Position numbers and translations under genes: made by a program. The notes beneath the pieces were generated by a model that saw only the letters and a program-made list of their open reading frames with translations, was not told where the DNA came from and searched no databases. This document shows positions 6,285 through 42,445 of a DNA stretch of 42,445 nucleotides, one piece after another. Source of the DNA: a virus. Lineage: Duplodnaviria > Heunggongvirae > Uroviricota > Caudoviricetes. Every line of letters begins with the position of its first letter. The first letter of the stretch is position 1. Location: the IMG/VR virus record IMGVR_UViG_2693429518_000021; one strand, written 5' to 3'.

Positions 6285-6289
6285 AGGAG

Positions 6290-8353
6290 TTAATCCTTAC
6301 GGTAGTGGTACGCCTCAAAACCGCCAGCGTTCAGTGGGATATCTGGCGCCCATTCGGGGTTAGTGGAGAGAAGCGCGGAAAGCGCTTTATCGTTGAAATC
6401 TTCTGTGTCAGGTGATTCGGTGATCACCTCGTCGTGTACCGTCAGCACAATGCTGTAACCGGCATCTTCGATAAGCGGCATGTTTCCGGCCAGAACGTCG
6501 CGGGCGGCCGCCTGGGTGACGTTCTCCACCAGCTTTCCGCCGTAGGTTTTGAGTCGTTGCCATTTACGCGAATAAGAGTTAACACCCATGTAGGTGATAT
6601 TCCCTTGTTCGATAACCGGAGACGGGTAGCATACAGCGCGTCCGGATGGTAGCTGTATGCGCAGCCACGCGCCATCGCGGCGGATTTTAAGATAACCGCA
6701 ATACAATGTTTTTTGCGGTGTGGCGATTGCTGTGCGGACGGTGCACTCCAGTTCGTACCAGAAATCACAGGTCGCGGGATGCGCCCGGCGCCAGAGACGT
6801 TTAAGTGAGTCGCAGGCGATAAATACCCGTTCAGAAAGCCCGTAGGTCGATTTACGTTTAACCGATTCGTCGTACCAGCTTTTCGCCTCGCGGATAACAT
6901 CGCGGGGAATGTTTGGCAGTGCGGCGTTCGCCAGCCCGTCGAGATCGAGACCGTAAACCAGAGCAAAAGTGATGAAAGCCGATACACCTCCTCCATAACC
7001 CAGACCGAGTTCCATGACTTTACCGATCTGACGCATGTGTTTATCAACATCATCTGGTGCAATATCGAAAGCTTTTGCATACGCCAGTTTATATAAGTCC
7101 GGACCCGTTCCGGCGTCGTACTCTCTGAATGCATTCAGTTTCCATTCTTCTCCCGCCAGCCATGCCAGCATACGGCCTTCAATGTTCGACAAGTCACTTA
7201 CCACCAGCTTTTTGCCTGTTGGCGCGATAATGCAGCCACGTAACGCTGAACTGGTTAGTTCCATGATATTGTCAAACAGCAGGTCTGCACATCCGGCTTT
7301 CAGTGCTTCGATGCCTTCGTCTATTTGTTCCTGTTTTAGTGAAGGGCGGGGAAGGTTCTGGGGCTGGAATAGCCGTCCGGCCCAACGACCGGTACGTGAC
7401 GCCCCGCAGAACTGTAGCGTACCGCGTAAGCGCCCGTCGTGGCTTACGCCTTTCATCAGTGCCTTGTATTTACTGGTGCTGGTAGTACTGGCCTGCAGGC
7501 GGATAGCCAGCAGTTCTTTCACGGCAGATGGTAAATCGGGGTCGGCAATACGACGTTCCAGAGTACTGCGTTGCATGTCTGGTAGCTCCACACCGTAGGA
7601 TTCAACAATGTGCTTAATCAACGCGTCTCGTTGTGTGGCTGCCTGCACTTCGCCATCAGTCATTTCCTGTGTACGCTTTGCCAGGCGCTTTTGTTCCTGG
7701 TCTACCGCGTCGATCGCAGCGCGTGCGAGTTCCACGTCCATGCAGACGCCCCGGTCATTGATCTGCTGATCACGATGCCAGAGCGCCAGTTCTGTCCCCT
7801 GATAATTCCACTTCGGCAGACGTTTATAGACTTCGCGCATTGCCTCGATATCCAGTCCGGCGTAAGCAACAAAGCGCCGCCATTCTTCCGGGTGGGTTTT
7901 GCTGGTGGCCCGGCGCAGTTTGCTGTTTTTCGGGCGTGGCTTACAGAACAGCTGGATCAGCGCTTTACCTTCTTTGTCCTTCGCTTTGTCTTGCGGGACG
8001 CCTAGTACTTCGCAGAGTTCCCCCAGAGCCCCCGGGAGACCGTGCGCCAGCGCCTGCACCATCGTGTCGCGCCAACGTTCGACTGGCGGTGCCAGTCGCG
8101 GCATTGCATAACGCAGGACGGTGCGGTCGAAGTGAGAGTTATGAAAATAAAGCAGGGTTTCAGGGGCTGCGATTGCTTCGTATAAGCCGTGTGGAATACC
8201 ACCACCGGCAGTGATATCCCATACGTTTACTGGCCCGTCGTTGATAGCCCATGCGAACAGCATCACTTCAACGCCTTCGGCATACGCATGGGTACCGTTC
8301 GTAATAGGGATTTCGCAATAGGTTTCCAGGTCGCCCCATAGTATATTGGACAT
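6290..8353 (-). CDS. DNA polymerase, family A (with 3'-5' exonuclease domain)
   Basis: 687 aa; exonuclease DxE (WGDLETY), polymerase motif A ([19 protein letters not shown]-like), motif B ([16 protein letters not shown]), motif C (VHDE). Confidence 0.85.
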
Positions 8354-21490: not shown

Positions 21491-22956
21491 TGGCACGAAA
21501 CAAACAAGCCCTGCGGCGAACTGCGCAGGCCACAGCTGATGGTTATGAGAATTTTATTGCCCGCGTAGGGATGCAGACACCTAACCAGCACTCAGCATCC
21601 ACCTACCGGGCTAATTTCACCAGTCGTAACCGCATGCTGGTGGAATGGTCCTATCGTTCATCCTGGATCATCGGCGAAGCAGTCGATGCTATCCCGGATG
21701 ATATGACCCGCAAAGGCATTCGCATCACGTCGGAAATTGATGCAAAAGATCGTGGCATTCTCGAATCACAACTGGATGAGTTGCAAATCTGGGATGCGCT
21801 GAATGACGTGCTGAAATGGTCGCGCCTCTACGGCGGCGCGGTGGGTTTCATCATGATTGAGGGGCAGGCACCAATGACCCCGCTGCGACCCGAAACCATC
21901 GGTAAGGGCAAGTTTAAGGGGATTCTCCCGCTCGACCGCTGGATGATCGACCCGGTACTGACCCGCCGCATTAAAGATATGGGGCCGGACCTGGGTAAAC
22001 CTGAGTTTTACGATGTGGTGACCACAGCAACGGGAATTCCTGCCTGGCGCATTCATCACAGTCGCCTGATTCGCTTTGATGGCGTCACGCTGCCATTTCA
22101 GCAGAAGATGACCGAGAACGAATGGGGAATGTCGGTTGTAGAGCGTATCTGGGATCGTCTTACCGCGTTCGACAGCGCTACTGTCGGCGCGGCGCAGCTG
22201 GTCTACAAGGCGCATCTGCGCACCTACAGCGTGGAGAAGCTACGCGAGCTTATCGCACTTGGTGGTCCTGCGTATGAAGCGTTGCTGAAGAATATCGACC
22301 TGATTCGACAGTTCCAGAGCAATGAAGGTATGACACTCATGGACTCGCGGGATAAGTTTGAAACGCATCAGTACAGCTTCAGTGGTCTGGATGACATCCT
22401 TTCGCAGTTTGCAGAACAGATTAGTGGCGCTGTTGGTATCCCACTGGTGCGGTTGTTCGGACAGTCCCCGAAAGGATTTTCTACCGGCGATGCAGACCTT
22501 GCCAACTATTACGACCGGGTAAGCTCGTTACAGGAGAGGCGTTTACGTCTTCCGGTGCGGCGGATACTGGACATCATGCATCGTTCGGAGCTTGGCAAGC
22601 CGCTGCCGGACGATTTCACGTTTGAGTTTAACCCGCTCTGGCAAATGTCTGATGTCGATCGCTCAACGGTGGCGTTAAACACTACCAACGCAATCAGTAC
22701 GGCGCTGGGTGATGGTCTGATGACACTGAAAGCCGCTATGACTGATTTGCGCGAAAATTCTGACGTAACCGGCATCGGGGCATCCATTACCGACGAGGAC
22801 ATCGAGAATGCCGAAGATGAAGCGCCGCCCGGCATCGGCGAATCTGATGACGAACCGCAGGAACCGTCAGGCGGAAATCCGCTATCGAACCAGCCTACGC
22901 AGGATAGCGCGGGCGGTCGGAGACATCGTAAATGGTCGCTACGATGGTTCAAATGA
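21490..22956 (+). CDS. Portal protein
   Basis: 488-aa ORF following the large terminase with a 1-nt overlap (TGATG); acidic C-terminal region. Confidence 0.7.
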   Translation: MARNKQALRRTAQATADGYENFIARVGMQTPNQHSASTYRANFTSRNRMLVEWSYRSSWIIGEAVDAIPDDMTRKGIRITSEIDAKDRGILESQLDELQIWDALNDVLKWSRLYGGAVGFIMIEGQAPMTPLRPETIGKGKFKGILPLDRWMIDPVLTRRIKDMGPDLGKPEFYDVVTTATGIPAWRIHHSRLIRFDGVTLPFQQKMTENEWGMSVVERIWDRLTAFDSATVGAAQLVYKAHLRTYSVEKLRELIALGGPAYEALLKNIDLIRQFQSNEGMTLMDSRDKFETHQYSFSGLDDILSQFAEQISGAVGIPLVRLFGQSPKGFSTGDADLANYYDRVSSLQERRLRLPVRRILDIMHRSELGKPLPDDFTFEFNPLWQMSDVDRSTVALNTTNAISTALGDGLMTLKAAMTDLRENSDVTGIGASITDEDIENAEDEAPPGIGESDDEPQEPSGGNPLSNQPTQDSAGGRRHRKWSLRWFK

Positions 22957-23581
22957 CAGTATCACGGAAATTATTGAGGCGCTGGAACGCTACAGTGAAA
23001 TCATCACCCCCTGGGCGACAAAGGTCGCGGAAAACTTTACTGCGGACCTAACCCGGCAGAACGAGAAAGTTTGGCGGCAACACAGCAAGAACATCAGTCG
23101 CGAGCTCCGCAATCTTGTGGAAAGCGCTCCTGTGGGCCAGGTGATGCAATCCATCATCGCCGAACAGGTCAAGTACATCAAATCGCTCCCCCTCGAGGCG
23201 GCTGACAGGGTGTACGACATCCAGAATCGGGCGACAGAAGCTGTTGTGACCGGTGGGAGAGCAGAATATTTTGCTAAAGAAATAGCCGCATCGGGTGATA
23301 TAGCAAAGTCCAGAGCTGACCTGATTGCCCGTACTGAACTTGGACGTGCAACCGGCGCGCTGGATCAGGCGCGTGCGCTGTCAATTGGTTCGAATGGTTA
23401 TATCTGGCGTACAGCCGAAGATGGTGACGTCAGGCATTCTCATCGGGAAATGGAAGGTAAATTTGTCGAATGGGGCAAACCTCCAACGCTTGACGGCATG
23501 ACAGGTCACGCTGGCGAGCTCCCGAATTGTCGCTGTTATAAAGAAATCGTTTTTCCCACCTCCCAATCTTATCCCGCCTGA
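22808..23581 (+). CDS. Head morphogenesis protein (Mu F / SPP1 gp7-like)
   Basis: 257-aa ORF with GAGGA Shine-Dalgarno 8 nt upstream of ATG 22808; overlaps the portal 3' end by 149 nt in another frame; assignment by position after portal. Confidence 0.5.
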   Translation: MPKMKRRPASANLMTNRRNRQAEIRYRTSLRRIARAVGDIVNGRYDGSNDSITEIIEALERYSEIITPWATKVAENFTADLTRQNEKVWRQHSKNISRELRNLVESAPVGQVMQSIIAEQVKYIKSLPLEAADRVYDIQNRATEAVVTGGRAEYFAKEIAASGDIAKSRADLIARTELGRATGALDQARALSIGSNGYIWRTAEDGDVRHSHREMEGKFVEWGKPPTLDGMTGHAGELPNCRCYKEIVFPTSQSYPA

Positions 23582-29685: not shown

Positions 29686-30126
29686 ATGTCTACCTATTCT
29701 TTTATGGATGTCACTGCGACGCTGACCGGGCCGACAGGTTCGATTGACCTCGGGTACGGTTCGGCAAGTTCTGAAGAGGGGATTGTGGTTGCGATGGGCG
29801 GTCCTAAAAACACCATGACCATCGGTGCTGATGGCGAAGTGATGCACAGTCTCCATGCAGATAAAAGCGGGACGATTACCGTTAACCTTCTGAAGACATC
29901 ACCGACAAATAAAAAATTGTCGCTGGCGTATAACGCACAGAGCCAGTCTTCTGCCACATGGGGGAATAACGTTATCGTGATCCGCAACAAGGTCAGCGGC
30001 GACATCATCACGGCACGCAGTGTTGCGTTCCAGAAACAACCGGATAACGCCAACGCTAAAACCGGTAATACGATGCCGTGGGTGTTTGACTGCGGCAAGA
30101 TTGACCAGGTTCTCGGGGAGTTTTAA
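29686..30126 (+). CDS. Tail tube protein
   Basis: 146-aa ORF between sheath and chaperone. Confidence 0.55.
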   Translation: MSTYSFMDVTATLTGPTGSIDLGYGSASSEEGIVVAMGGPKNTMTIGADGEVMHSLHADKSGTITVNLLKTSPTNKKLSLAYNAQSQSSATWGNNVIVIRNKVSGDIITARSVAFQKQPDNANAKTGNTMPWVFDCGKIDQVLGEF

Positions 30127-30129
30127 TGC

Positions 30130-30582
30130 ATGGAATTCGAAATTAAAGGCGTGAAATATCGCACGGCAAAACTCAGCGTTTTTGACCAGCTGAAAGTGAC
30201 CCGCAAACTTCTGCCGGTGCTGGCAGGAATGATGTCAGATTTCGGGAGTATTCGCTCCCGTTTGCCTGCTGACGGCAAAATCGACACCGTGAAATTCGAA
30301 CAGTTAAAACCGGTGTTTGAAACCATGCTCCCGCGTATCGCTGAGGAACTGTCTTCCCTGACCGAAGATGACACCGATGCGATTATTCATCCCTGTCTTG
30401 CGGTGGTATCGCGGCGTCATATGGACGGATGGGTGCCGGTATTTACCCAGGGCGAACTGATGTTTGATGATATTGACTTGCTGGTCATGCTGCAGCTGGT
30501 GGCGCGGGTGGTCGCCGATTCGCTGGGAAATTTTTTGCCTACACCCCTTACCAGCACGACGCAGAGCCTGCAACAAGGCTGA
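30130..30582 (+). CDS. Tail assembly chaperone (short form)
   Basis: 150-aa ORF immediately upstream of the tape-measure gene, with a slippery site near its 3' end. Confidence 0.6.
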   Translation: MEFEIKGVKYRTAKLSVFDQLKVTRKLLPVLAGMMSDFGSIRSRLPADGKIDTVKFEQLKPVFETMLPRIAEELSSLTEDDTDAIIHPCLAVVSRRHMDGWVPVFTQGELMFDDIDLLVMLQLVARVVADSLGNFLPTPLTSTTQSLQQG

Positions 30583-30770
30583 CGTTTAACAGCCTGCCGG
30601 ACGGGCTGTCCTACCTTCTCAATCCGGTTGACGCCGGGTTAATTCCTTATACAGCACTTAAAGATGGCTCTGTCGATTTGTATGACATTGCTCTCTTGAA
30701 TGACCATCTGGCGGTAAAAGCGGATAACCAGCGACGCATTGAGAAATGGAGAGAGGATAATGAACGCTGA
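30528..30770 (+). other. Programmed -1 frameshift site (A_AAT_TTT_TTG, 30528..30537) and -1-frame extension of the chaperone to stop at 30768..30770
   Basis: Zero-frame codons GGA AAT TTT TTG give overlapping heptamers A_AAT_TTT and T_TTT_TTG; the -1 frame is open from 30537 to the TGA at 30768 (AYTPYQHDAEPATRLTFNSLPDGLSYLLNPVDAGLIPYTALKDGSVDLYDIALLNDHLAVKADNQRRIEKWREDNER), overlapping the tape-measure start. Confidence 0.5.
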
Positions 30771-32748
30771 AACTATTAAAGATTTCCTCGTCTCGCTTGG
30801 CTTCAGTGTGGATGATGCAGGAGCGAAAAAGTTCGGTTCTGTCCTCGCCGGTACAACTGCAAATGTCATCAAAATGGGGCTGGCTGTTGAAGGAGCTGCG
30901 TTGTCCGTGGTGGCCTTCACGGCTAAGATCGCCTCCGGCCTGGATAATCTTTACTGGGCGTCACAGCGCACCGGCGCGACAGTCCAGGGAATTCAGTCTA
31001 TTGGCTATGCGGTTTCGCAGGTTGGCGGCAGCGTGGACGCTGCGCGATCTTCTCTGGAAAGCCTATCCCGGTTTATTCGTAACAATCCCGGTGCAGAAGG
31101 CTTTCTGAATCGCCTGGGCGTACAGACCCGTGATGCCAGCGGTAACATGCGTGACATGGCCGCTATTTTTACGGGCGTTGGACAGAAACTCAGCAGCATG
31201 CCGTATTACCGGGCTAACCAGTATGCGCAGATGCTGGGCATTGACGAAAATACCCTTATGGCGATGCGCCGGGGTGTGGGTGGCTTCTCCGGGCAGTACA
31301 GCGCAATGGCGAAAGCTATCGGCTTCAATGCTGACGAGGCGGCCAGAAGCTCCAACAAATTTATGACCTCCCTGCGTGAGTTTGGCGCGATGGCAGGCAT
31401 GGCCCGTGACAAAATCGGCTCTAATCTTGCGGGGGGGCTTGCGGGTTCGCTGGACACCCTGCGCCGCCATATCCTGGACAACTTCCCTCGTATCGAGCAG
31501 ACCCTGACGAAAGCCATAAAAGGCATTCTGGCGCTCGGGGATATTATCGGGCGGCTGTTCTTCAGACTGATTGAGGGGACATCAGGCCTTATCACCTGGT
31601 GGCAATCGCTGGATAAGCAAACGCGGGAGTTGATCTCGCTGTTTGGCGCACTGACGATTGCGCTGCGCATTCTGAACAGTACGTTCTGGATGTCGCCGAT
31701 TGGCCTCATTACCGCGCTGGCGGCGGGTATTGCCCTCCTGTGGGAGGACTATCAGACCTGGAAGGAAGGCGGCGACAGCCTGATTGACTGGGGCAAGTGG
31801 AAACCGGAGGTCGATGCCGCGCTGAAGATGGTTCGTGACCTTAAAACGACCGTTAACGACCTGGTGAAAGCGCTGGCGAAACTGCTCAATATTGACCCCA
31901 AATCATGGTCCCTGAAGTGGGATTTCAGCAACTTCATCGACCAGATGGGCGAATTCAGCAAAATGCTGAACATGATCGCCGACCTGCTCAACGCTATCAA
32001 AGATGGCCGCTGGGCTGATGCCGTCAGCATCGGCAAACAGATACTTAATCAGGGCAGCGAAAATCCGTCAGCGATGCCGATGGTTACAGACAGCGCTAAC
32101 AGTACTGCCGACTGGATTAAAGAGCACTGGGGATTCGATCCCCGCAGTGTGGGCCGGACGGTACGCGGCTGGTTTGGTGATGATGAGCCGGAACAACATG
32201 CACAGGCTACGAAACGAGGAGAACGGAATAACAATCCGGGAAACCTTAATTTTGCTGGTCAGGCAGGGGCTTCTCTTGAACGCCCGGGCGGGCGATTTGC
32301 CAGATTTGAAACTGCTTTTGATGGATTACGGGCTCTTGCTCGTCAGTTAATGCTGTACGCCGGACGGGGAATAAACAGTGTGGAGAAAATTATCTCTACC
32401 TGGGCACCTGCGTCTGATAATAACAACACAACTGCGTATATCAGGGCTGTATCGCAACGACTGGGAGTGGATCCCCGGGCTGCCCTGAATATGAGCGATC
32501 CGCAAACCATGTCAGCATTGATGAGCAGCATTATCCAGCATGAGAATGGAAGAAATATCTATTCTCGGGAGCTGATTAATAAGGCTGCCGTGGCGGGAAT
32601 TAGTGGCAAAGTGACAGAGGTTAACCAGCAAAATACCTACCACATTTACGGTGGTGGAGATCCGCACGCTGTCGGTAATGAGGTTGCACGTCGGCAACAG
32701 TCTGCAAATGCTCAGGTCATGCGAAGTAATCAGGTGAGGGTGGGTTAG
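30760..32748 (+). CDS. Tail tape measure protein
   Basis: Largest tail-module ORF, after the frameshifting chaperone; ATG 30760 preceded by GGAGAGAGG; long Ala/Leu/Gly-rich helical regions. Confidence 0.7.
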   Translation: MNAETIKDFLVSLGFSVDDAGAKKFGSVLAGTTANVIKMGLAVEGAALSVVAFTAKIASGLDNLYWASQRTGATVQGIQSIGYAVSQVGGSVDAARSSLESLSRFIRNNPGAEGFLNRLGVQTRDASGNMRDMAAIFTGVGQKLSSMPYYRANQYAQMLGIDENTLMAMRRGVGGFSGQYSAMAKAIGFNADEAARSSNKFMTSLREFGAMAGMARDKIGSNLAGGLAGSLDTLRRHILDNFPRIEQTLTKAIKGILALGDIIGRLFFRLIEGTSGLITWWQSLDKQTRELISLFGALTIALRILNSTFWMSPIGLITALAAGIALLWEDYQTWKEGGDSLIDWGKWKPEVDAALKMVRDLKTTVNDLVKALAKLLNIDPKSWSLKWDFSNFIDQMGEFSKMLNMIADLLNAIKDGRWADAVSIGKQILNQGSENPSAMPMVTDSANSTADWIKEHWGFDPRSVGRTVRGWFGDDEPEQHAQATKRGERNNNPGNLNFAGQAGASLERPGGRFARFETAFDGLRALARQLMLYAGRGINSVEKIISTWAPASDNNNTTAYIRAVSQRLGVDPRAALNMSDPQTMSALMSSIIQHENGRNIYSRELINKAAVAGISGKVTEVNQQNTYHIYGGGDPHAVGNEVARRQQSANAQVMRSNQVRVG

Positions 32749-33335
32749 TGGATATTCTCTCTACACTTTTTCATCAGCAGAGCAGAAAAATAGGAATGAT
32801 TGTTCCCTGTGTTGTTATTTCAGAGAAGCATACAGATATGCTTGAAATAACAGAGCATCCGGTAGAGGTCGGGGCCGCTGTCGCTGATCATGCCTATAAA
32901 AAACCGTCAGAAGTGGTGATGGAGGTTGGTTTCGCCGGTGGTGGCGCATTGCTGGATTTTGCCAGTAACCTGACGGCTACCAGCCTGCTCGGCCTGAGTC
33001 CTCAGCAGACGTATCAGGAGCTACTGGATCTGCAGGAAAGCCGTATCCCCTTCGATGTGGTAACCGGTAAACGACTGTACAGCAACATGTTGATCCGGGC
33101 GCTGGAAGTGACGACGGACAAGACAACCGAAAACGTCCTGTCCGCCGTCCTCACCCTGAGGGAGGTCCTTATCTCCCGGACACAGCAGATTTCCGTCGCG
33201 GATAAAACCAACATGAAGGAAGGGGCCAGCACCTCGGCGGTACAGAACAGCGGCAACAAAACCACCAAGCCTCCAGATACTTCACTGCTGAAAAGCATCA
33301 CGGGTAACGTGGCGTCATTACTGGGGGGCGGCTAA
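32748..33335 (+). CDS. Hypothetical tail/baseplate protein
   Basis: 195-aa ORF, start overlapping the tape-measure stop. Confidence 0.4.
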   Translation: MDILSTLFHQQSRKIGMIVPCVVISEKHTDMLEITEHPVEVGAAVADHAYKKPSEVVMEVGFAGGGALLDFASNLTATSLLGLSPQQTYQELLDLQESRIPFDVVTGKRLYSNMLIRALEVTTDKTTENVLSAVLTLREVLISRTQQISVADKTNMKEGASTSAVQNSGNKTTKPPDTSLLKSITGNVASLLGGG

Positions 33336-33637
33336 TGGCAATTCAGGAAATTCCGCTGACAGCGGACAACCAGCAGTTCAGCATCGTCCTGGGTGGTGTT
33401 ACCTGGCGGATTAGCATCATATGGCGCGATCTGTACTGGATTATGGACCTGCAGAACGACAGAGGGGAGCCGGTAATCTCCGGTATTCCTCTCGTCACTG
33501 GTGCTGACCTGCTGGCGCAGTACGCCTGTATGGGGCTTGGTTTTAAGCTGGTGGTGGTCTGTGATGACAACACACAGGATTACCCCACAAAAACTGACCT
33601 GGGCGGTCGCAGCCATTTACTGGTATCAACGGAGTAA
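33335..33637 (+). CDS. Hypothetical tail/baseplate protein
   Basis: 100-aa ORF in the tail gene series. Confidence 0.35.
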   Translation: MAIQEIPLTADNQQFSIVLGGVTWRISIIWRDLYWIMDLQNDRGEPVISGIPLVTGADLLAQYACMGLGFKLVVVCDDNTQDYPTKTDLGGRSHLLVSTE

Positions 33638-33639
33638 GC

Positions 33640-34704
33640 ATGTCACAGAACTGGATGAGACATTTCGAGCTGCAGCTTGTGGACGGGAACGGTCAGGGAA
33701 TTGAGCTAAGTGATTTTAAAGTGACCTTTACGATCGACTGGTTCAACATCAGCAGCGCGTCCCGGGTAGGGACTATCAAAATTTATAACCTCTCGGCAGA
33801 TACTGTGAACCGAATCACCGGGCGGGAGTTTTCGAAAGTGCGTCTGATTGCGGGTTACGACGGTATCGCGCCGGAGGTGTCGGCAAGCGACGTCGGGATC
33901 GTGCGGGAGGTTGATGCGGCGGACGTGGGCCAGAGTGATGGCCGCAACTACGGACTGATTTTCAGCGGTGAAATTCGCTACTCGGTTACAGGAAAAGACA
34001 GTCCGGTTGATTCCTACGTCCTGATTCAGGCAGCAGATACTGATCTGGCTTTTGCCACCAGTATAACCTCACAGACGCTGGCTGCCGGTTACACGGTCGC
34101 TGATGTGAACCGTGCGCTGATGAAAGACTTCGAAGCCAAAGGTGCGACCGAAGGCCTGACGCCTGAAATGCCTGCTACTGTATTCCCCCGGGGGCGGGTG
34201 CTCTTTGGCATGACGCGGCATCTAATGGATAACGTAGCCGGGCAATGTGGCGCAACATGGCAATTCGTAGACGGTCAGCGCCAGATGGTGGCGAATAATG
34301 AATATGTTCACGAAGCGATTGTGCTCAACAGCGCTACCGGGCTTATTGGCATGCCGCAGCAGACCATCGGCAACGGCGTAAACGTTCGCGCGCTTATTAA
34401 TCCGAACATCCGGGTTAATGGGCTCATTCAACTGGATCAGGCTTCCGTATATCGCACCGCGTTGTCGAACAACGATATCGCTATGGCTGGTGGGCAGATC
34501 ACCGACCAGAACACGGACGGAAATATTACGCTAAGCGGCACCACATCGCAGCCTGCCAGCATCGCAACGGATGGCGTTTATATTGTGCGCGGGATTATGT
34601 ACACTGGCGATACAAGGGGCCAGGCGTGGTACATGGATATGATGTGCGAAGCGCGCGGTGCGCAGGATATGCCATCCAGCACTGCTTTTCAGAGAGGATT
34701 ATAG
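33640..34704 (+). CDS. Putative baseplate hub/tail protein
   Basis: 354-aa ORF between the tape-measure region and the baseplate V/W/J genes. Confidence 0.45.
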   Translation: MSQNWMRHFELQLVDGNGQGIELSDFKVTFTIDWFNISSASRVGTIKIYNLSADTVNRITGREFSKVRLIAGYDGIAPEVSASDVGIVREVDAADVGQSDGRNYGLIFSGEIRYSVTGKDSPVDSYVLIQAADTDLAFATSITSQTLAAGYTVADVNRALMKDFEAKGATEGLTPEMPATVFPRGRVLFGMTRHLMDNVAGQCGATWQFVDGQRQMVANNEYVHEAIVLNSATGLIGMPQQTIGNGVNVRALINPNIRVNGLIQLDQASVYRTALSNNDIAMAGGQITDQNTDGNITLSGTTSQPASIATDGVYIVRGIMYTGDTRGQAWYMDMMCEARGAQDMPSSTAFQRGL

Positions 34705-34706
34705 AA

Positions 34707-35054
34707 ATGAAACGATGGATATTTTCATTGCTGGCATTAGTGTCTGTTGGTGTAAGTGCAAACACCATAACGATGCAATGCGGCAACTTTCGTATGGATG
34801 CGATCCCTGATTCATTATTTAAAATCAATGGCGAAACAGTAACGTCCCAAAAAGTAAAAATGTTGGGTAAAGACGGTACAGGCATGCAGATCAAAATGGA
34901 CCTGATGCCTGCCAAAGATGGCAACAATTATGGGTTCGAGTATATCCATCGACCTGGCACTAAAACGCGTTTCCTGAACGTCCAGTTGTTGCAGAACAGC
35001 ATGGATGCTCCGAAAATTATTGGCTCTTTCCCGTGTAAGAAAGTTGTTGGTTGA
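34707..35054 (+). CDS. Secreted (periplasmic) small protein, accessory
   Basis: 115 aa; N-terminal signal peptide MKRWIFSLLALVSVGVSA with an AxA-type cleavage site; no convincing lipobox. Confidence 0.55.
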   Translation: MKRWIFSLLALVSVGVSANTITMQCGNFRMDAIPDSLFKINGETVTSQKVKMLGKDGTGMQIKMDLMPAKDGNNYGFEYIHRPGTKTRFLNVQLLQNSMDAPKIIGSFPCKKVVG

Positions 35055-35061
35055 TTGAGAA

Positions 35062-35616
35062 ATGAGCAAGCGTTCGTCAATAGATACAACAGAAGAACAA
35101 AAGGCAATTGAGACTATAGGCGCTGATTTTATTTCGTCATATTATAAAGATAGATATGAGGAAGCAAAATCAACATATCGTCGTCTTGAGGACAAAGTTA
35201 ACTACCTTCTTGCTATTTTAGCTGTAGAAACCTCTGCTCTACTGGCTGTATTTGGGACTGTTGATTTCAAAAGTGGGCTAAAGAGTAATTGGTTTTTAAC
35301 ATTATCTATACTTTGTGCATATCTGTGCTTTGTTTGTATTGTTATGTGCTTTTTTTTCCTATGGCGTACTTGGGGACTGAAAGATATACCAAAAATGCCT
35401 ATTCATAAGCGAAAAGAAGAGCATGATTTTTTATTTTACGGTGATAAAATTAAAACGCTTAGATACCATATGTTTCAGTATGGTAAAGCTGTTGAATTGA
35501 TCGAAAGTCTTCATAAAGAAAAGGCAGTTTACGCTCGTTATCTTTTTGAAGGAATTGCGTTATCTTTCGGTTTTTTCATATTATCGGTTACTTTTCTTTT
35601 GATAAATAAGGCATAG
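35062..35616 (+). CDS. Hypothetical inner-membrane protein, accessory (AT-rich)
   Basis: 184 aa; TM segments (YLLAILAVETSALLAVFGTV; FLTLSILCAYLCFVCIVMCFFFLW; GIALSFGFFILSVTFLLI); codon usage visibly AT-rich. Confidence 0.55.
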   Translation: MSKRSSIDTTEEQKAIETIGADFISSYYKDRYEEAKSTYRRLEDKVNYLLAILAVETSALLAVFGTVDFKSGLKSNWFLTLSILCAYLCFVCIVMCFFFLWRTWGLKDIPKMPIHKRKEEHDFLFYGDKIKTLRYHMFQYGKAVELIESLHKEKAVYARYLFEGIALSFGFFILSVTFLLINKA

Positions 35617-35619
35617 TTG

Positions 35620-35790
35620 ATGACAACATCAAATAATGACAACTCACAGCAAAGCAAGCCAACGCAAGCAGAGCAATCCATGGCTGATTATGAAAGCAGT
35701 ATAATGCTTGAAGTACCTTTTGGTGGATTGGATTACATGACAGAAAGCGTTAAAGAACCTGAGTTGGACAATTTTAAACAGAAAAAATAA
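35620..35790 (+). CDS. Hypothetical small acidic protein (56 aa), accessory
   Basis: ATG 35620 to TAA 35788..35790 (MTTSNNDNSQQSKPTQAEQSMADYESSIMLEVPFGGLDYMTESVKEPELDNFKQKK); below the ORF-track size cut-off; followed by a terminator. Confidence 0.35.
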   Translation: MTTSNNDNSQQSKPTQAEQSMADYESSIMLEVPFGGLDYMTESVKEPELDNFKQKK

Positions 35791-35811
35791 ACTTAGAGTT
35801 GTTCCTGTAGA

Positions 35812-35838
35812 CCCGCCACTTGGCGGGTTTTTTGTTTT
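35812..35838 (+). terminator. Intrinsic terminator (CCCGCC-ACTT-GGCGGG plus T-run) closing the accessory cassette
   Basis: Perfect 6-bp GC stem followed by TTTTTTGTTTT. Confidence 0.55.
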
Positions 35839-35852
35839 CAGGAGTTTATCAA

Positions 35853-36605
35853 ATGGCCATATCAGACCAGACTCGTAGCGGCGACCTTGCCGAAACATTC
35901 AAATCCGAGCGGGAAACCACAAAGAACCAGATCCGCGTCGCTTTGCCTGGCATCGTTCAGTCATTCGATCCTGACGCGGTGACGGCGGTTGTGCAGCCTG
36001 CTATTCGTTCGGTTGAAACCGACAACGACGGCAACCGCGTAACCAAAAATTACCCGCTGCTGGTGGATGTGCCGGTGGTATTTCCGCGCGGCGGCGGCTG
36101 CACGTTAACTTTCCCGGTAAAAGCCGGCGATGAATGCCTGGTGATTTTTGCCGATCGCTGCATCGATTTCTGGTGGCAGAGTGGCGGGATACAGGAGACG
36201 GTCGATGACAGAATGCATGATTTATCGGATGCGTTTTGTATTGTCGGTCCCCAGTCGCAGGCAAGGAGGATTAGCGGTATTAATACCAGTGCCACACAGT
36301 TGCGTAGTGATGACGGCAGCACCTATTTTGAGCTTAATCCTGATACCAGGAAAATTAAAATTGTCGCTCCGGGTGGTCTTGATGTGGTTGCCCCTCTGGC
36401 TGATTTTTCTGAGAAAGTAACCATTCATGGCCTGTTAACCTGGATGGGGGGCATGGTGGGGTCTGTGGTTTCTGGTGTGGCTTCAAAAATCACTGGTGCT
36501 GTTGAGTTTTTGGGGAGCGTGAAGGCTAACGGCAAGCCAATCGATGATACGCACACTCATGGCGGTGTTCAGCGCGGTGGAAGCAATACCGATAGGGTAA
36601 ACTGA
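35853..36605 (+). CDS. Baseplate assembly protein V-like (spike)
   Basis: ATG 35853 (MAISDQ...) preceded by CAGGAG; C-terminal HTHGG motif resembles P2 gpV/Mu gp45-type spikes; the track start at 35820 lies inside the upstream terminator. Confidence 0.6.
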   Translation: MAISDQTRSGDLAETFKSERETTKNQIRVALPGIVQSFDPDAVTAVVQPAIRSVETDNDGNRVTKNYPLLVDVPVVFPRGGGCTLTFPVKAGDECLVIFADRCIDFWWQSGGIQETVDDRMHDLSDAFCIVGPQSQARRISGINTSATQLRSDDGSTYFELNPDTRKIKIVAPGGLDVVAPLADFSEKVTIHGLLTWMGGMVGSVVSGVASKITGAVEFLGSVKANGKPIDDTHTHGGVQRGGSNTDRVN

Positions 36606-36958
36606 TGCGATACAGACGTGAAGACGCCGATGGCGATTACACCTTTGGCAGCGGTGATGACACCTGGCTGATTAACTCACCGGAGGCCGTGGCGCAGGCG
36701 GTAAAAACGCGATTTGAATTGTGGTATGGGCAATGGTTTCTCGACACCACCGAAGGGACCCCGTGGATCCAGTCTGTGCTCGGTAAGCAGAAGCCGGAAA
36801 CCTACAACCTGGCGATCCGTAAGCGCATCCTCGAAACGCGGGGCGTTAAATCAATCCTCTCTTTCAATACGACGGTGGATACCACGACCCGACGTGTCAT
36901 GTTTTCCGCTGAAATCGACACTCTCTATGGAATAACGACTGTTAAATCGGAGGCGTAA
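36605..36958 (+). CDS. Baseplate protein W-like (gp25/GPW family)
   Basis: 117-aa ORF between V-like and J-like genes; assignment by size and order. Confidence 0.5.
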   Translation: MRYRREDADGDYTFGSGDDTWLINSPEAVAQAVKTRFELWYGQWFLDTTEGTPWIQSVLGKQKPETYNLAIRKRILETRGVKSILSFNTTVDTTTRRVMFSAEIDTLYGITTVKSEA

Positions 36959-38157
36959 TGGCTCTGAACCTTGATTCTCTCGGTTTATCTGCAAAGGTAA
37001 CCGCGGAGGGGATCAGTGCGCCTGATTATCAGACGATACTCAGCACCCTGATTAGCTATTTTCAGCAGATTTATGGCAGTGATGCCTACCTCGAACCGGA
37101 TAGTAAAGACGGCCAGATGGTGGCTCTGATGGCGCTGGCGATTCATGATGCCAATAATACTGCGATAACTGTCTACAACTGTTTTTCACCGGCAACCGGC
37201 TATGGGGCCGCACTGACCAGTAACGTGAAAATAAATGGTATTTCACGTAAAGGCGCGACGAATTCTACGGTTGATTTGCTTCTTACAGGAACTGCCGGAA
37301 CAACCATCATTAATGGCAGCGTGAAAGACAGTAATAGTGTGATATGGCGTTTGCCTGCTTCAGTGGTGGTCGGCGTGGATGGTACAGTGATGGCGACCGC
37401 AACATGTTCCGTCAGTGGTGCAGTGGCGGCGCTGGCTGGAACTATCACTGAAATTAATACGCCAACCCGTGGCTGGGTTTCGGTAACTAATCCTGCTGCG
37501 GCTACTGTTGGCTCTCCGGCAGAAACTGATGCGGAGTTACGTATCCGCCAGTCGCAAAGTGTTGCGTTGCCATCAATAACCCCATTTGAAGCACTGGATG
37601 GTGCTGTTTCTAATGTTACCGGTGTAACCCGCCACAAACTCTATGAAAACGATACTGGTTCGGAGGACGGTAACGGGTTACCGCCACACTCTGTTGCTGT
37701 AATTGTGGATGGCGGTGATGTGATGGATATTGCTCAGGCTATCAGAGGGAATAAAGGCCAGGGGACAGCCACTCACGGTACAACATCCGTTACGGTTCCG
37801 GATAAATACGGCAATCCCCATGTAATCAAATTCTCGCGTTCCAGTGATGTGCCTGTTTATGCCCGGATTAAATTAAAAGTTTTTACGGGTTATACCTCAC
37901 AGATAGGGCAGCAGATCCAGCAGGCTATTTCCGACTATATCAATAGTCTGATGATTGGTGATTCGGTCCTTTTAAGTCGCATTTACTCACCGGCGAATCT
38001 TGGCGTGGTGAGTGGCGGGAATGCACGCTATTACGATATTCAGGAACTGACGATTGGGAAATCTCCGGGGGCTTTGTCGTCATCAAACATTGATATCAGA
38101 TACAACGAATCTGCGTCCTGTACCCCGGAAAATATCGTTATAACGGTGGAGTCATGA
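36958..38157 (+). CDS. Baseplate J-like protein
   Basis: 399-aa ORF in the V-W-J-I-fibre order; its last ~140 codons lie in the duplicated module. Confidence 0.6.
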   Translation: MALNLDSLGLSAKVTAEGISAPDYQTILSTLISYFQQIYGSDAYLEPDSKDGQMVALMALAIHDANNTAITVYNCFSPATGYGAALTSNVKINGISRKGATNSTVDLLLTGTAGTTIINGSVKDSNSVIWRLPASVVVGVDGTVMATATCSVSGAVAALAGTITEINTPTRGWVSVTNPAAATVGSPAETDAELRIRQSQSVALPSITPFEALDGAVSNVTGVTRHKLYENDTGSEDGNGLPPHSVAVIVDGGDVMDIAQAIRGNKGQGTATHGTTSVTVPDKYGNPHVIKFSRSSDVPVYARIKLKVFTGYTSQIGQQIQQAISDYINSLMIGDSVLLSRIYSPANLGVVSGGNARYYDIQELTIGKSPGALSSSNIDIRYNESASCTPENIVITVES

Positions 38158-38834
38158 GCAAATACACCGAACTAATCACGAACTACCACGCCACCAAACC
38201 TAAATTTCTTGCACATGTTGATCTGATGACCCGGCCGCTTATTGATGTTGCGGCGGCCACCAGAGGGCTGATTACTGCATTTGATATTGACTCTGCGGTT
38301 GGTGTGCAACTTGACATTCTGGGATTGTGGATCGGACGTAGCCGTGTTGTCAGCCAGCCTATCTCAGGTGTTTATTTCAGCTGGGATACCGACGGGCTTG
38401 GATATGATCAGGGTGTATGGCAGGGACCATACGATCCTGATTCCGGATACATGTACCTCAGCGATGAAACTTATCGTGTCATCCTTAAAGCGAAGATTGC
38501 GATTAATAACTGGGACGGACGGAATGATTCGCTTCCGGCAATTCTTGACGCGGCAACAGCAGGATCCGGGCTGCGAATGCAGATAGTCGATAACCAGGAC
38601 ATGACGATATCGGTCTGGGTCTTTCCTGATACTGATATTTCAGATGTATCGCGTGAGTTAATTGCGGCAATTAAACAGGGGTATCTCACAGTAAAAGCCG
38701 CCGGGGTATGGGCGGGGGGCATTGAAACTCCTTCGGTGGAAACCCCATCGGAAGGCTCAAAATTTTTTGGTTTTGATATGGATAACGAATTCATCAGTGG
38801 TTTTGATGTAGGAGCATGGGGAGTATTACTCTGA
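38154..38834 (+). CDS. Baseplate/tail protein I-like (copy 1)
   Basis: 226-aa ORF; translation identical to 39972..40652. Confidence 0.5.
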
Positions 38835-39643
38835 TGGCGAAAAATGACTTTAAAGCGTTTGCAACTGATCGAAATGCCAATGTTATGTCGCAGGAGGAAT
38901 GGGAAGCGTTGCCTGCGCTTTTATCCGGATTTACAGCAGGGAAAGCATCCAGTGCGCAGGTGAACAAAGCCATTCGACAGGCCAGCTTTATTGCTGCAGC
39001 TCTGGCCCAGTTTGTAAGTGACAAAACGCAACGGGATGTGCTTGATAATGGTGATCTGCCCGGTTTTGTTGAATTGCTGGGATCGGGGTTTGCTGTTGAA
39101 TACCTGAGCCGCAAGAATCCGTTTGGCGATATCAAATCGGATGGCACTGTGCAAACGGCTCTCGAAAACCTTGGTTTGGGAGAAGGTTCTGCATTACCTG
39201 TTGGTGTGCCTGTTCCGTGGCCTTCAGTCACACCGCCAACAGGCTGGCTGAAATGCAACGGTGCGGCTTTTTCTGCTGAAGAATACCCGGAACTGGCAAA
39301 GGCTTACCCGACCAATAAATTGCCTGATTTACGCGGTGAATTTATTCGTGGCTGGGATGACGGTCGCGGGATTGATACTGGTCGCGCTTTGCTTAATTGG
39401 CAGCCACACACAATTTTGGACCATGCACACTATATGGAATTATGGACAGGGGACGGACTCGCCGCAGGAAGTGCACGGGAAGGAGTAAACCCAGGAATAC
39501 TGGCTACATACGGTGACGGGGGAATAGTTAAAACGGACGAACCCGGTCTTAAAAGGCTATCAGAGGGAATAAAGGCCAGGGGACAGCCACTCACGGTACA
39601 ACATCCGTTACGGTTCCGGATAAATACGGCAATCCCCATGTAA
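38834..39643 (+). pseudogene. Tail fibre gene, copy 1: constant N-terminus plus truncated collar-domain variable cassette, fused out of frame to the duplicated J fragment
   Basis: First ~117 codons identical to fibre copy 2; from 39186 a different C-terminal cassette with tail-collar-like motifs ([23 protein letters not shown]); the frame crosses the junction at 39553/39554 and ends after ~30 unrelated codons. Confidence 0.5.
39159..39184 (+). other. hix/gix/cix-like DNA invertase crossover site, copy 1 (CTCTCGAAAACC-TT-GGTTTGGGAGAA)
   Basis: 26-bp imperfect palindrome with the AAACC-NN-GGTTT core typical of Hin/Gin/Cin sites (from memory); copy identity ends 1 bp after the site. Confidence 0.55.
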
Positions 39644-39975
39644 TCAAATTCTCGCGTTCCAGTGATGTGCCTGTTTATGCCCGGATTAAATTAAAAGTTT
39701 TTACGGGTTATACCTCACAGATAGGGCAGCAGATCCAGCAGGCTATTTCCGACTATATCAATAGTCTGATGATTGGTGATTCGGTCCTTTTAAGTCGCAT
39801 TTACTCACCGGCGAATCTTGGCGTGGTGAGTGGCGGGAATGCACGCTATTACGATATTCAGGAACTGACGATTGGGAAATCTCCGGGGGCTTTGTCGTCA
39901 TCAAACATTGATATCAGATACAACGAATCTGCGTCCTGTACCCCGGAAAATATCGTTATAACGGTGGAGTCATGA
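39554..39975 (+). pseudogene. 3' fragment of the J-like baseplate gene (duplicate, no start)
   Basis: Translation of 39667..39975 is identical to the last 102 residues of the J-like protein; the fragment begins at the duplication junction. Confidence 0.6.
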
Positions 39976-40652
39976 GCAAATACACCGAACTAATCACGAA
40001 CTACCACGCCACCAAACCTAAATTTCTTGCACATGTTGATCTGATGACCCGGCCGCTTATTGATGTTGCGGCGGCCACCAGAGGGCTGATTACTGCATTT
40101 GATATTGACTCTGCGGTTGGTGTGCAACTTGACATTCTGGGATTGTGGATCGGACGTAGCCGTGTTGTCAGCCAGCCTATCTCAGGTGTTTATTTCAGCT
40201 GGGATACCGACGGGCTTGGATATGATCAGGGTGTATGGCAGGGACCATACGATCCTGATTCCGGATACATGTACCTCAGCGATGAAACTTATCGTGTCAT
40301 CCTTAAAGCGAAGATTGCGATTAATAACTGGGACGGACGGAATGATTCGCTTCCGGCAATTCTTGACGCGGCAACAGCAGGATCCGGGCTGCGAATGCAG
40401 ATAGTCGATAACCAGGACATGACGATATCGGTCTGGGTCTTTCCTGATACTGATATTTCAGATGTATCGCGTGAGTTAATTGCGGCAATTAAACAGGGGT
40501 ATCTCACAGTAAAAGCCGCCGGGGTATGGGCGGGGGGCATTGAAACTCCTTCGGTGGAAACCCCATCGGAAGGCTCAAAATTTTTTGGTTTTGATATGGA
40601 TAACGAATTCATCAGTGGTTTTGATGTAGGAGCATGGGGAGTATTACTCTGA
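39972..40652 (+). CDS. Baseplate/tail protein I-like (copy 2)
   Basis: Identical to 38154..38834. Confidence 0.5.
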
Positions 40653-41350
40653 TGGCGAAAAATGACTTTAAAGCGTTTGCAACTGATCGAAATGCCAATG
40701 TTATGTCGCAGGAGGAATGGGAAGCGTTGCCTGCGCTTTTATCCGGATTTACAGCAGGGAAAGCATCCAGTGCGCAGGTGAACAAAGCCATTCGACAGGC
40801 CAGCTTTATTGCTGCAGCTCTGGCCCAGTTTGTAAGTGACAAAACGCAACGGGATGTGCTTGATAATGGTGATCTGCCCGGTTTTGTTGAATTGCTGGGA
40901 TCGGGGTTTGCTGTTGAATACCTGAGCCGCAAGAATCCGTTTGGCGATATCAAATCGGATGGCACTGTGCAAACGGCTCTCGAAAACCTTGGTTTGGGAG
41001 AAGCGGCGAAAAGGGATGTGGGTACAGGAGAAAATCAGATACCGGATATGTCAGCCTGGAAAAGAAATCCGAGTTCTAATCGCTGGAGAAAATTGCCTGA
41101 TGGAACCATCATTCAAATGGGAATATCAGCATCAGGGCCATTAGGCTCACCTGTAAATATCACCCTGCCGATATCTTTCAGCAATACCAATTATTGTGTT
41201 GTTGCATCGTACGATAATGCACGGTCAGGTGTGTCAACAATGGTTAGTTTTGCAGCATTACCTGTTTCACCATCGCAATTTTCCCTGATGTCATCTGTGA
41301 CTGAGCAAGGAGTAAATCCTTTTGCTTACTGGATTGCTTTTGGAGATTGA
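40652..41350 (+). CDS. Tail fibre protein (constant N-terminus plus variable cassette in current orientation)
   Basis: ATG 40652 overlaps the I-like stop (TGATG); sequence diverges from copy 1 after the gix-like site at 41003. Confidence 0.6.
40977..41002 (+). other. hix/gix/cix-like DNA invertase crossover site, copy 2; probable left boundary of the invertible segment
   Basis: Identical to the site at 39159..39184; lies at the constant/variable junction of the fibre gene. Confidence 0.55.
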
Positions 41351-41353
41351 TAA

Positions 41354-41773
41354 ATGGACAGATACTTCTATTCACAAAAAGAAAATGGTTTTTTTACCGA
41401 TTTAAATAAAGCACCTTCAGATGCTGTTGAGATAACCACGGATGAATGGCTGTCACTACTGGATGGTCAGGATAATGGCATGAAAATAGTCAGCAATCAG
41501 GAGGGATATCCGGTTTTGACAGAGCAACCACCTTTATCAAAAGAAAACCTTATTGCATTGGCAGAGTTGAAAAAAGGAAAACTTATTAATGAAGCCAACG
41601 AGCACATGAATAGCAGGCAATGGCCTGGTAAAGCCGCTATTGGTCGTCTGAAAGGTGACGAGCTGGAACAATATAATTTATGGCTGGATTATCTGGACGC
41701 ACTGGAACTGGTTGATATCTCCAGTGCTCCAGATATTGAATGGCCTACGCCTCCGGCAGTTCAGGCCAGATGA
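41354..41773 (+). CDS. tfa: Tail fibre assembly protein (Tfa/U-like)
   Basis: 139 aa; C-terminal motif DISSAPDIEWPTPP typical of Tfa chaperones; directly follows the fibre gene. Confidence 0.65.
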   Translation: MDRYFYSQKENGFFTDLNKAPSDAVEITTDEWLSLLDGQDNGMKIVSNQEGYPVLTEQPPLSKENLIALAELKKGKLINEANEHMNSRQWPGKAAIGRLKGDELEQYNLWLDYLDALELVDISSAPDIEWPTPPAVQAR

Positions 41774-42350
41774 CATCCGGCGCGGTGCTGGTATCTGTTG
41801 CAGTCACCGCGTCAATGTAATCCAGCACAGCGTTAAGCCGGGTTGTTTCTGCCTGCGTCAGCTTCCGCCCGGCCTGTAATTTCAGTTGAATCAGACTAAT
41901 GGAAGCCATTGCAGCATCAATCAGTGACTGACGCTGTGCTTCTGCCGCTTCGACTGCTGCGCTATGCTGTGCCTCAGTATCGGTCACCCATTTCTCACCA
42001 TCCCATTTATCGTATGGCGTTAATGGAGCGATAGTGGTTGTATTTTCAGGGTAATCACCCGGAGCTGTGATTTCTTTTGATTCTCCTGTTTCAGTGCTAT
42101 AGACCGTTTCACCGCGATGGTCTGGCACATATTCCCATGAGTTAAAATCTGCAGAACGGCAAATTGCATAACCAGCTTTATATGAGCCAGGAGCATCTAA
42201 ACAGGAACATGCCGGGATACCGACACCCACAGCAAGATATTCAGTTGATGTGGAAATATATTCCCGTGTCTCACCATCATAATTGTAAACGGTAATGTCT
42301 CCCGCCTTTGTGGTGATGAGTTCGCTATTTAATACAGCTTTATTCATCAT
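41745..42350 (-). CDS. tfa: Tail fibre assembly protein, alternative copy (Tfa'/U'-like), inverted orientation
   Basis: 201 aa; resembles lambda Tfa as I recall it (EYVPDHRGETVYSTETGE, DTSTAPDVIWPELP); convergent with and overlapping the plus-strand tfa by 29 nt. Confidence 0.7.
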   Translation of the reverse strand: MMNKAVLNSELITTKAGDITVYNYDGETREYISTSTEYLAVGVGIPACSCLDAPGSYKAGYAICRSADFNSWEYVPDHRGETVYSTETGESKEITAPGDYPENTTTIAPLTPYDKWDGEKWVTDTEAQHSAAVEAAEAQRQSLIDAAMASISLIQLKLQAGRKLTQAETTRLNAVLDYIDAVTATDTSTAPDVIWPELPEA

Positions 42351-42445
42351 GCGGCCCTTACGATATAATTAAAAGCGATGTTACGAGGACGAGTTTCTGT
42401 ACCTACATTTTCACTAATTTCACCATAACGTTTAACACTACGAGA
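42345..42445 (-). CDS. 3' end of an alternative tail-fibre variable cassette (partial; continues beyond the window)
   Basis: Minus-strand frame is open from the window edge (...SRSVKRYGEISENVGTETRPRNIAFNYIVRAA) to a TGA overlapping the Tfa' start (ATGA). Confidence 0.5.

Follow-up and report, generated by a model that had tools for sequence, protein, structure and literature searches.

The closest described relative of the locus analysed here is the P segment of the Escherichia coli cryptic prophage e14, part of a Pin/pix tail-fibre switch known since the 1980s, which comprises the crossover sites pixL and pixR, the fibre and chaperone genes stfP/tfaP and tfaE/stfE, and pinE, laid out as Sc-pixL-Sv-tfa / tfa'-Sv'-pixR-pin. 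The G segment of phage Mu (Gin) and the C segment of phage P1 (Cin) share the same site family and geometry (12-2-12, AAACC-NN-GGTTT), and in both, as here, the site lies within the fibre gene at the constant/variable junction and a pair of alternative C-termini is present, each served by a separate assembly chaperone. The site sequences differ, the Mu gix site having a GA core and another outer half than pix, and the phage backbones of Mu and P1 are unlike the one here. More elaborate members of the same recombinase and site family also exist, as multi-site Din systems: Min of p15B has six mix sites (Table 3, PMC3241671), and the locus of a P2-like prophage in EPEC E2348/69 has three repeats and four variants (PMC4272514).

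The locus compared here occupies the right end of the window (the whole 42,445-nt stretch analysed), which is the terminal part of a draft E. coli contig and carries a prophage that has an SfV-like late region, is related to O103:H2 prophages, and has a tail-fibre gene that would be switched by a Pin-type serine invertase. Whereas e14 is a remnant at icd, the prophage here is full-length, has an intact baseplate operon (Baseplate_J, DUF2612) and lies between yfhL and yfhH. Its fibre locus contains two alternative C-termini (Collar versus Gp53-like_C) and two Caudo_TAP genes on opposite strands, with the following features in window coordinates.

36958..38157, + strand: baseplate J/gp47 gene (Pfam Baseplate_J, E=7e-15; relatives annotated alike)
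38154..38834, + strand: DUF2612 / baseplate wedge 1 gene (Pfam DUF2612, E=4e-47)
38834..39172, + strand: Sc, constant 5' part of the tail-fibre gene as far as the crossover dinucleotide (PHROG tail fibre families)
39159..39184, - strand: pixL, genuine copy, joined to Sv1 (26/26 against published pixL; str. 12009 colinear through 39552)
39185..39552, + strand: Sv1, variable fibre C-terminus 1 (tail-collar domain), first 368 nt (Pfam Collar)
39553, no strand: probable join of two assembly pieces (A in the window, N in the public record)
39554..41003, + strand: very probably false second copy of 37736-39185, with the J 3' part, DUF2612, Sc and pixL (1,450/1,450 identical)
40977..41002, - strand: pixL shown a second time, joined to Sv2 (Sc-pixL-Sv2 order as in 2011C-4251)
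41003..41350, + strand: Sv2, variable fibre C-terminus 2 (gp53-like C-terminal domain; Pfam Gp53-like_C, E=5e-13)
41354..41773, + strand: tail-fibre assembly chaperone cognate to Sv2 (Pfam Caudo_TAP, E=1e-25)
41745..42350, - strand: tfaE-type tail-fibre assembly chaperone cognate to Sv1, in silent orientation (Pfam Caudo_TAP, E=3e-33; tfaE in relatives)
42347..42445, - strand: Sv1 3' end, cut by the contig end (window 42445 corresponds to position 6432 of str. 12009)

The crossover site itself is readily placed among those already described. The sequence CTCTCGAAAACCTTGGTTTGGGAGAA was found exactly twice in the window, at 39159-39184 and 40977-41002, both on the + strand (0 matches expected in 100 shuffles), and the window contains no further site that fits AAACC-NN-GGTTT with 0 mismatches. 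The reverse complement of 39159-39184, TTCTCCCAAACC AA GGTTTTCGAGAG, agrees at 26/26 positions with the published pixL of the e14 P segment (Table 3, PMC3241671), and the K-12 e14 sequence (L004) gives the same 26/26 match at position 4779. In the genuine copy the core is the TT at 39171-39172 (+ strand), and the N-terminal ~117 aa are identical between the two fibre ORFs, Sc being common to both. This identity makes the 26-bp element pixL, the crossover site long known from the Pin tail-fibre inversion switch; the first-pass annotation had taken it for a serine-invertase crossover site placed, as in Mu G and P1 C, where the constant and variable parts of a fibre gene meet, and was right in both respects.

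The locus can be compared with complete O103:H2 genomes that are nearly identical to it. These carry a single pixL, an inverted pixR and a frameshifted pinE, and either orientation occurs among them. Specifically, window 1-39552 is colinear with O103:H2 str. 12009 (L002; Sv1 orientation), while windows 30000-39184 (3 mismatches) and 41003-42445 (0 mismatches) are colinear with 2011C-4251 (L001; Sv2 orientation), such that Sc-Sv1 and Sc-Sv2 are each seen in a complete relative at 99.9-100% identity; the source draft itself holds both junctions. In nine complete genomes at ~100% identity the locus spans 3,728 bp, not 5,546 bp, and is without the duplication described below. The site pixR is present at 26/26 in 4/4 relatives examined (L001:11125, L002:7875, L003:23246, L004:6606), each of which carries a single pixL and a single inverted pixR and nothing else within 7 mismatches of either. 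The window ends inside the invertible segment and holds no inverted partner site, and alignment with L001 predicts pixR ~400 bp past its end (pixR together with pinE at about 400-480 bp). The first-pass annotation had anticipated both an inverted site and an invertase gene to the right of the window, and in 100%-identical relatives pixR (26/26) and pinE are found just past the equivalent point. There pinE, which is outside both window and contig here, carries a -1 frameshift after about residue 100; an intact pinE in L006 matches Pfam Resolvase and HTH_7. In this family the 5' part of the invertase gene also contains a recombinational enhancer bound by Fis, which here would fall beyond the window.

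Compared with e14, then, pixL here and pixR in the relatives are the same at 26/26 and the layout is the same, and after frameshift repair PinE of the relatives shares 169/184 residues with e14 PinE, with the tfaE region ~90% and the pin region ~87% identical at the DNA level. The differences are that Sv2 here is a gp53-like C-terminus which, together with its chaperone, has no BLAST match to e14, and that pinE, unlike that of e14, is frameshifted in the nearest O103:H2 relatives. Strand exchange at the central TT of pixL would join Sc either to Sv1 and tfaE or to Sv2 and its own chaperone, as the ~1.85-kb segment between pixL and the inverted pixR beside pinE inverts. The real part of this locus is a further case of the known two-state Pin/pix switch.

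The second pixL requires a separate explanation. Each copy of the site closes one arm of an exact 1,450-bp direct repeat (37736-39185 / 39554-41003; period 1,818), a block that begins in the 3' part of gene J, and the arms, as had been observed at the outset for the supplied window, diverge one base after the site, having one more G in common before reading GTTCTGC and CGGCGAA, respectively. Window 33667-42445 corresponds to the last 8,779 bases of draft contig CYAH01000005.1 (GCA_001284785.1) and is identical to it except at 39553, which is N in the contig and A in the window, and which sits exactly at the Sv1|J joint; native Sv1 has T at this point and native J has C, and the A fits neither. 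To the left of this position the Sv1 fragment (39185-39552) is 100% identical to str. 12009 6036-6403 and breaks off where the native sequence goes on TGTGCC. At the other extreme, the right end of the window is the end of the contig, and the minus-strand part of Sv1 ends there 28 nt short of where the + strand fragment stopped (L002 6403), such that the two pieces end no more than 28 nt apart in Sv1. The N at 39553 is probably the sole N behind the window, because the other 28 differences from str. 12009, spread over 39.5 kb, look like ordinary SNPs and indels, and further Ns could be concealed at just three, where the window has A. The direct orientation of two sites, on which the first-pass annotation had built, is thus a property of the supplied text, but very probably not of the genome, because the joint that creates it reads N in the source record.

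The joint has no counterpart in the collections searched. Its 42 bases, sought as an exact 42-mer, gave no match in IMG/VR, GTDB representative genomes or JGI metagenomes, and BLAST against INPHARED and RefSeq complete E. coli was negative as well. The chimeric fibre ORF, looked up with both possible starts, is not on record, because the product in the record has X at the N, and for the 102-aa J' ORF, on record in 16 contigs, the duplication occurs among the 10 listed in the source contig alone. A similar duplication suspected in two other genomes with long-spanning matches turned out to be IS insertions (IS200/IS605-TnpB; ISVsa5). The joint was not made by an invertase, as the crossover sites are 368 nt and 1,449 nt away, and there is no pix-like sequence within 7 mismatches at either breakpoint of the joint. 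Nor is it a real junction mediated by microhomology, as microhomology is absent and the single 'filler' base is the N.

We consider it highly likely that the extra 1,818 bp are a false duplication, in which two overlapping contigs, one for each orientation, were abutted at an N. The sequenced culture would have held both orientations, and a scaffolder or gap closer would have abutted two overlapping contigs with differing tips: the left piece would end in Sc-pixL-Sv1 after the first 368 nt of Sv1, be abutted at the N (window 39553), and be followed by a right piece that starts inside gene J and runs through Sc-pixL-Sv2. The genome itself most probably has a single pixL, the second direct copy being a product of assembly. 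We infer from the N, rather than observe, that reads spanning the joint are absent. A de Bruijn assembler alone does not normally give two contigs with 1,450 bp in common, and this explanation therefore assumes an extra step, such as contig extension, gap filling, path duplication or reference-guided ordering. A gap between two copies is one listed mark of false duplications (PMC9516828), and the case resembles the heterotype false duplications described by Ko et al. (2022), where two versions of one locus are likewise kept side by side with a gap between them and an unsupported joint; there, however, the versions are parental alleles, whereas here a clonal bacterial culture would supply an invertible segment in its two orientations, and the gap is a single N. 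A literature search for the assembly accession GCA_001284785.1 found nothing.

One point that sits less easily with two abutted contigs is that the left boundary of the second copy, 37736, is not a repeat boundary in the other genomes compared. A piece beginning at a repeat boundary would be accounted for if two real, dispersed pixL sites existed, with a second, related prophage elsewhere in the same genome carrying J 3'-DUF2612-Sc-pixL and its contig mis-scaffolded beside the first, in which case the adjacency seen here would still be an artefact. Such dispersal is suggested by the fibre module, which matches several places in many E. coli genomes (median 2, max 14), and by FDAARGOS_1059, which has a 100% match to Sc(3' end)-pixL-Sv1 at a second locus. 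However, the closest complete relatives have only one copy of the J/DUF2612 stretch across 37736, 302/303 genomes match at least 80% of the query with no common homology boundary at 37736, and the extra places in the O103:H2 relatives may plausibly be the query's own Sc/pixL and J fragments. We regard this reading as improbable, and slightly more so than a real duplication.

In a real tandem duplication, Sv1 nt 368 would have been joined to J nt 779, through unequal exchange between sister chromosomes or through illegitimate recombination, to duplicate 1,818 bp, with Sv2 then placed after the second copy by pixL x pixR inversion, or by exchange between sisters in different orientations, to give a three-site locus (+,+,-). 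Duplication in the Sv1 orientation plus inversion of the proximal segment can be derived to yield exactly this structure, and the 100% identity of the repeat fits a recent event. The contig also breaks near the expected start of an inverted copy of the Sv1 fragment, but it does so 28 nt before that supposed repeat and not k-1 nt inside it. A genuine event would further place its novel joint in continuous sequence, and a joint supported by reads would have a called base, whereas the record has N and the joint is unique to CYAH01000005.1; an N falling on the joint by chance would be expected about 1 in 10^4. A short-read assembler places an exact repeat of 1,450 bp twice only via junction k-mers, with the loop resolved, and a 1.45-kb direct repeat is quickly lost through RecA-dependent recombination. 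Four states would be reachable, with no added fibre C-terminus. We think it a slim chance that this account is correct.

Least probable by far is the multi-site, shufflon-like system proposed in the first-pass annotation, an evolved arrangement of direct and inverted sites. The precedents of p15B and the EPEC prophage share the recombinase and site family, and the window, if real, would superficially have three sites as well, but those systems have several distinct, reproducibly found C-termini, whereas the third site here appears to be a copy artefact without a new C-terminus. The extra module consists of a truncated existing C-terminus and a truncated baseplate gene, with no diversity gained, and the arrangement is confined to one draft record, at an N. 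Shufflons have at least 3 sites and more than 2 alternative C-termini, and the relatives examined, with one pixL and one pixR each, have only two sites, while the extra site in the window brings nothing more than a truncated Sv1; the R64 type uses the Rci tyrosine recombinase and sfx sites, where the relatives have Din-type pix sites and a serine recombinase. The suggestion that an invertase would delete between the direct sites falls likewise, as the second copy follows a single-N join found nowhere else. Wild-type enhancer-dependent invertases (Hin, Gin) in any case have a topological bias that disfavours deletion when the repeats are direct. Deletion as efficient as inversion is seen only in Fis-independent mutants, Hin-H107Y among them (PMC4817059).

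If the false-duplication reading is correct, it carries a caution: invertible segments that are heterogeneous in a sequenced culture may enter draft assemblies as tandem 'duplications', doubling crossover sites and mimicking novel multi-site recombination systems, with a single N, or a base substituted for an N, at the joint as the tell-tale sign. Should the 1,818-bp repeat nevertheless prove real in this one strain, which we doubt strongly, it would be a fresh, unselected locus of pixL, pixL and inverted pixR with four interconvertible states, and would show an early stage from which multi-site systems such as Min could arise, via duplication of a module containing Sc and the site. A by-product is an indirect sign that inversion of the segment continues in this lineage, although pinE is frameshifted in its nearest complete relatives. 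A milder reading, with better support than a real repeat, is that both orientations coexist in a lineage with a frameshifted pinE of its own; the switch would then be driven in trans by the invertase of another prophage; PinQ has been reported to act in trans on the e14 segment (PMC12529663).

The window contains the 26-mer CTCTCGAAAACCTTGGTTTGGGAGAA at two positions only, 39159-39184 and 40977-41002; both copies are on the plus strand, none would be expected by chance, and no further perfect AAACC-NN-GGTTT core is present. Each copy sits at the end of one unit of a direct repeat that is exact over 1,450 bp (units 37736-39185 and 39554-41003, period 1,818 bp), and one more common base (G) follows the 26-mer before the units diverge, so that the duplicated site closing two module copies, as described in the first-pass annotation, is present in the sequence as supplied. 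The site had been called a hix/gix/cix-like invertase site, which names the right family but can be made more exact: its reverse complement, TTCTCCCAAACC AA GGTTTTCGAGAG, agrees at every letter with the published pixL of the e14 P segment (Table 3 of PMC3241671), and K-12 e14 carries it in pixL form at L004:4779. Judged by this identity, the 26-mer is pixL itself.

The genes around the site are arranged as follows (Sc, constant 5′ part of the tail-fibre gene; Sv1 and Sv2, its two alternative variable C-termini).

upstream: spike protein gene, baseplate operon
36958-38157: Baseplate_J (gene J), baseplate operon
38154-38834: DUF2612/wedge 1, baseplate operon
38834 (start): tail-fibre gene
broken off at 39552/39553: first fibre ORF, Sc plus a tail-collar C-terminus (Sv1)
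ends 41350: Sv2, gp53-like C-terminus of the fibre
41354-41773: Caudo_TAP chaperone
41745-42350, minus strand: tfaE, second chaperone
from tfaE to the window end, minus strand: Sv1 3′ end

Past 39552/39553 the first fibre ORF runs out of frame into the mid-part of a second copy of gene J, and the order after this joint is a J′ fragment, a DUF2612 copy, an Sc copy and then the gp53-like C-terminus.

The stretch 36900-42445 has counterparts of ~100% identity in nine complete STEC genomes (O103:H2 and allies), where it spans 3,728 bp versus the window's 5,546 bp, and the window's extra 1,818 bases are therefore missing from these genomes. In the relatives the order is J - DUF2612 - Sc - pixL - Sv - tfa / tfa′ - Sv′ - pixR - pinE, then yfhH, where pixR (TTCTCCCAAACC AA CGTTTATGAAAA, 26/26 against the published site) is inverted relative to pixL and pinE encodes the Pin-type serine invertase. 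An inverted partner beyond the window had been anticipated, and the relatives do carry one, with pinE adjacent, but not as a third site: pixL and pixR are the only two, and none of the four relatives examined has another within 7 mismatches. The fibre is Sc-Sv2 in E. coli 2011C-4251 (L001), which is colinear with window 41003-42445 (0 mismatches), and Sc-Sv1 in O103:H2 str. 12009 (L002/L007), which is colinear with window 1-39552 (99.93%). The closest complete relatives have one copy each of the J/DUF2612 stretch that crosses 37736.

The extra 1,818 bp comprise Sv1 nt 1-368 (39185-39552, equal to L002 6036-6403), base 39553, and J from nt 779 (39554 onwards). The A at 39553 fits neither parent, as the next base of native Sv1 is T and the base before this part of native J is C, and there is no microhomology at the joint. 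A 42-mer across it was absent from RefSeq complete E. coli, INPHARED phages, IMG/VR, GTDB representative genomes and JGI metagenomes, and look-up of the chimeric fibre ORF across it returned no record. Sixteen contigs carry the 102-aa J′ ORF; among the best 10 of these 16, the doubled gene order occurs only in L008, the last 8,779 bases of CYAH01000005.1 (244,361 bp; GCA_001284785.1), while the other nine have J frameshifts, IS insertions or contig starts. L008 equals window 33667-42445 save at 39553, where the record has N and the window A. Because the match runs to the record's last base, the window's right end (42445) is a contig end, and because 39553 is N in the record, the 'duplication' joint is a single-N join, not sequenced DNA. 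This N had been replaced by a definite A before analysis, which masked the assembly join in the window. It is probably the sole N in the 42 kb: the remaining 28 differences from 12009 resemble ordinary SNPs or indels, with A in the window at three only, and these three could conceal more. Chance cannot account for its falling on the joint. Scaffolders such as SSPACE place a single n where contigs are predicted to overlap but the end overlap is not found. The left piece stops at L002 6403 in Sv1 and the right piece (the contig end) at L002 6432, from the opposite side, such that the two assembly pieces end either side of one 28-nt Sv1 spot. A near-palindrome, CACTACGAGCT-ATT-AGCTCTCGTAGTG, adjoins this spot (L002:6415-6441); on the minus strand, its position corresponds to the window end and the bases immediately beyond.

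The direct-repeat second pixL is almost certainly an assembly artefact, in which two overlapping representations of a single locus, tipped with different orientations of the invertible segment, would have been abutted; an assembly gap separating the copies is a published characteristic of false duplications, of the heterotype kind (PMC9516828). A real tandem duplication followed by inversion would fit the geometry, but the N and the uniqueness of the joint contradict it, and a 1,450-bp exact repeat is hard to place twice without junction k-mers, so that we consider it very unlikely. A second prophage with the same module, mis-scaffolded beside the first, is very unlikely given the single-copy J/DUF2612 stretch across 37736. 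The multi-site, shufflon-like reading of the first-pass annotation does not survive, as an evolved system of this kind is extremely improbable where the four relatives examined lack a third site and the extra copy follows an N join. Under the assembly-artefact reading, the draft's two junctions, Sc-pixL-Sv1 and Sc-pixL-Sv2, each require read support; since J/DUF2612 is single-copy in the closest relatives, the simplest inference is that both orientations were present in the sequenced culture.

From established knowledge of Hin, Gin, Cin and Pin, backed by PMC3798978 and PMC4817059, two invertase dimers on pixL and pixR would form an invertasome together with a Fis-bound enhancer, cut at the central dinucleotide, rotate by 180 degrees and religate, flipping the segment so that the other Sv and chaperone pair becomes fused to Sc. 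The enhancer-dependent complex aligns sites for inversion, and it is Fis-independent mutants such as Hin-H107Y that delete efficiently between direct hix sites (PMC4817059); a real direct pair would therefore not readily be resolved as deletion, as had been proposed. Were all three sites real, enumeration gives four reachable states, each expressing Sc-Sv1 or Sc-Sv2, and no further C-terminus would be gained. What is real belongs to the Din family of invertible fibre switches, a system already known, and shares identical crossover sites with e14 Pin/pix and its organisation with the Mu G and P1 C segments. It is unlike the genuinely multi-site p15B, with its mix sites, and an EPEC prophage locus with three repeats and four variants (PMC4272514).

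In the O103:H2 relatives, pinE is frameshifted (-1) within a run of G (...STPMAVSFF... in place of ...STPMGRFFF...), which costs the C-terminal third, HTH domain included; with the frame restored, the identity to e14 PinE is 169/184. The frameshifted gene lies past the window end, at L001:11206-11759 and L002:7956-8509 in 100%-identical prophages, and intact pinE occurs in more distant relatives, with the product in one (L006) matching Resolvase + HTH_7. Despite the frameshift, both orientations are found among near-identical strains, and apparently in the source culture, which suggests either that the invertase of another prophage inverts the segment in trans or that pinE was inactivated very recently. 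PinQ, a Pin-family enzyme, is reported to act in trans on the e14 segment (PMC12529663), and such trans-action could account for inversion in the frameshifted lineage.

Elsewhere, the prophage is inserted between yfhL and yfhH and has an integrase gene at its left end; the yfhL stop codon ends at window base 1, and such a cut at a gene boundary is typical of trimmed proviruses. Relative to str. 12009, three consecutive substitutions fall at 67-69 (TTG versus CGC) in the host/prophage boundary region, and most of the 27 SNPs lie in the first 6 kb (integrase, helicase, methyltransferase region). An indel at 23135 leaves one A fewer than in 12009, where the gene is annotated as a frameshifted 'phage minor head protein'; the window ORF (22808-23581) is open for 257 aa, and the gene may be intact in the source strain. 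A low-GC island (34626-35790; 33-40% GC versus ~52% around) splits the baseplate operon and contains three small ORFs of unknown function, among them a 184-aa ORF (35062-35616) that weakly matches PADLOC PycTM / 2TM effector models (E=2.6e-4) as well as PHROG families of unknown function, and may be a moron or defence cargo.
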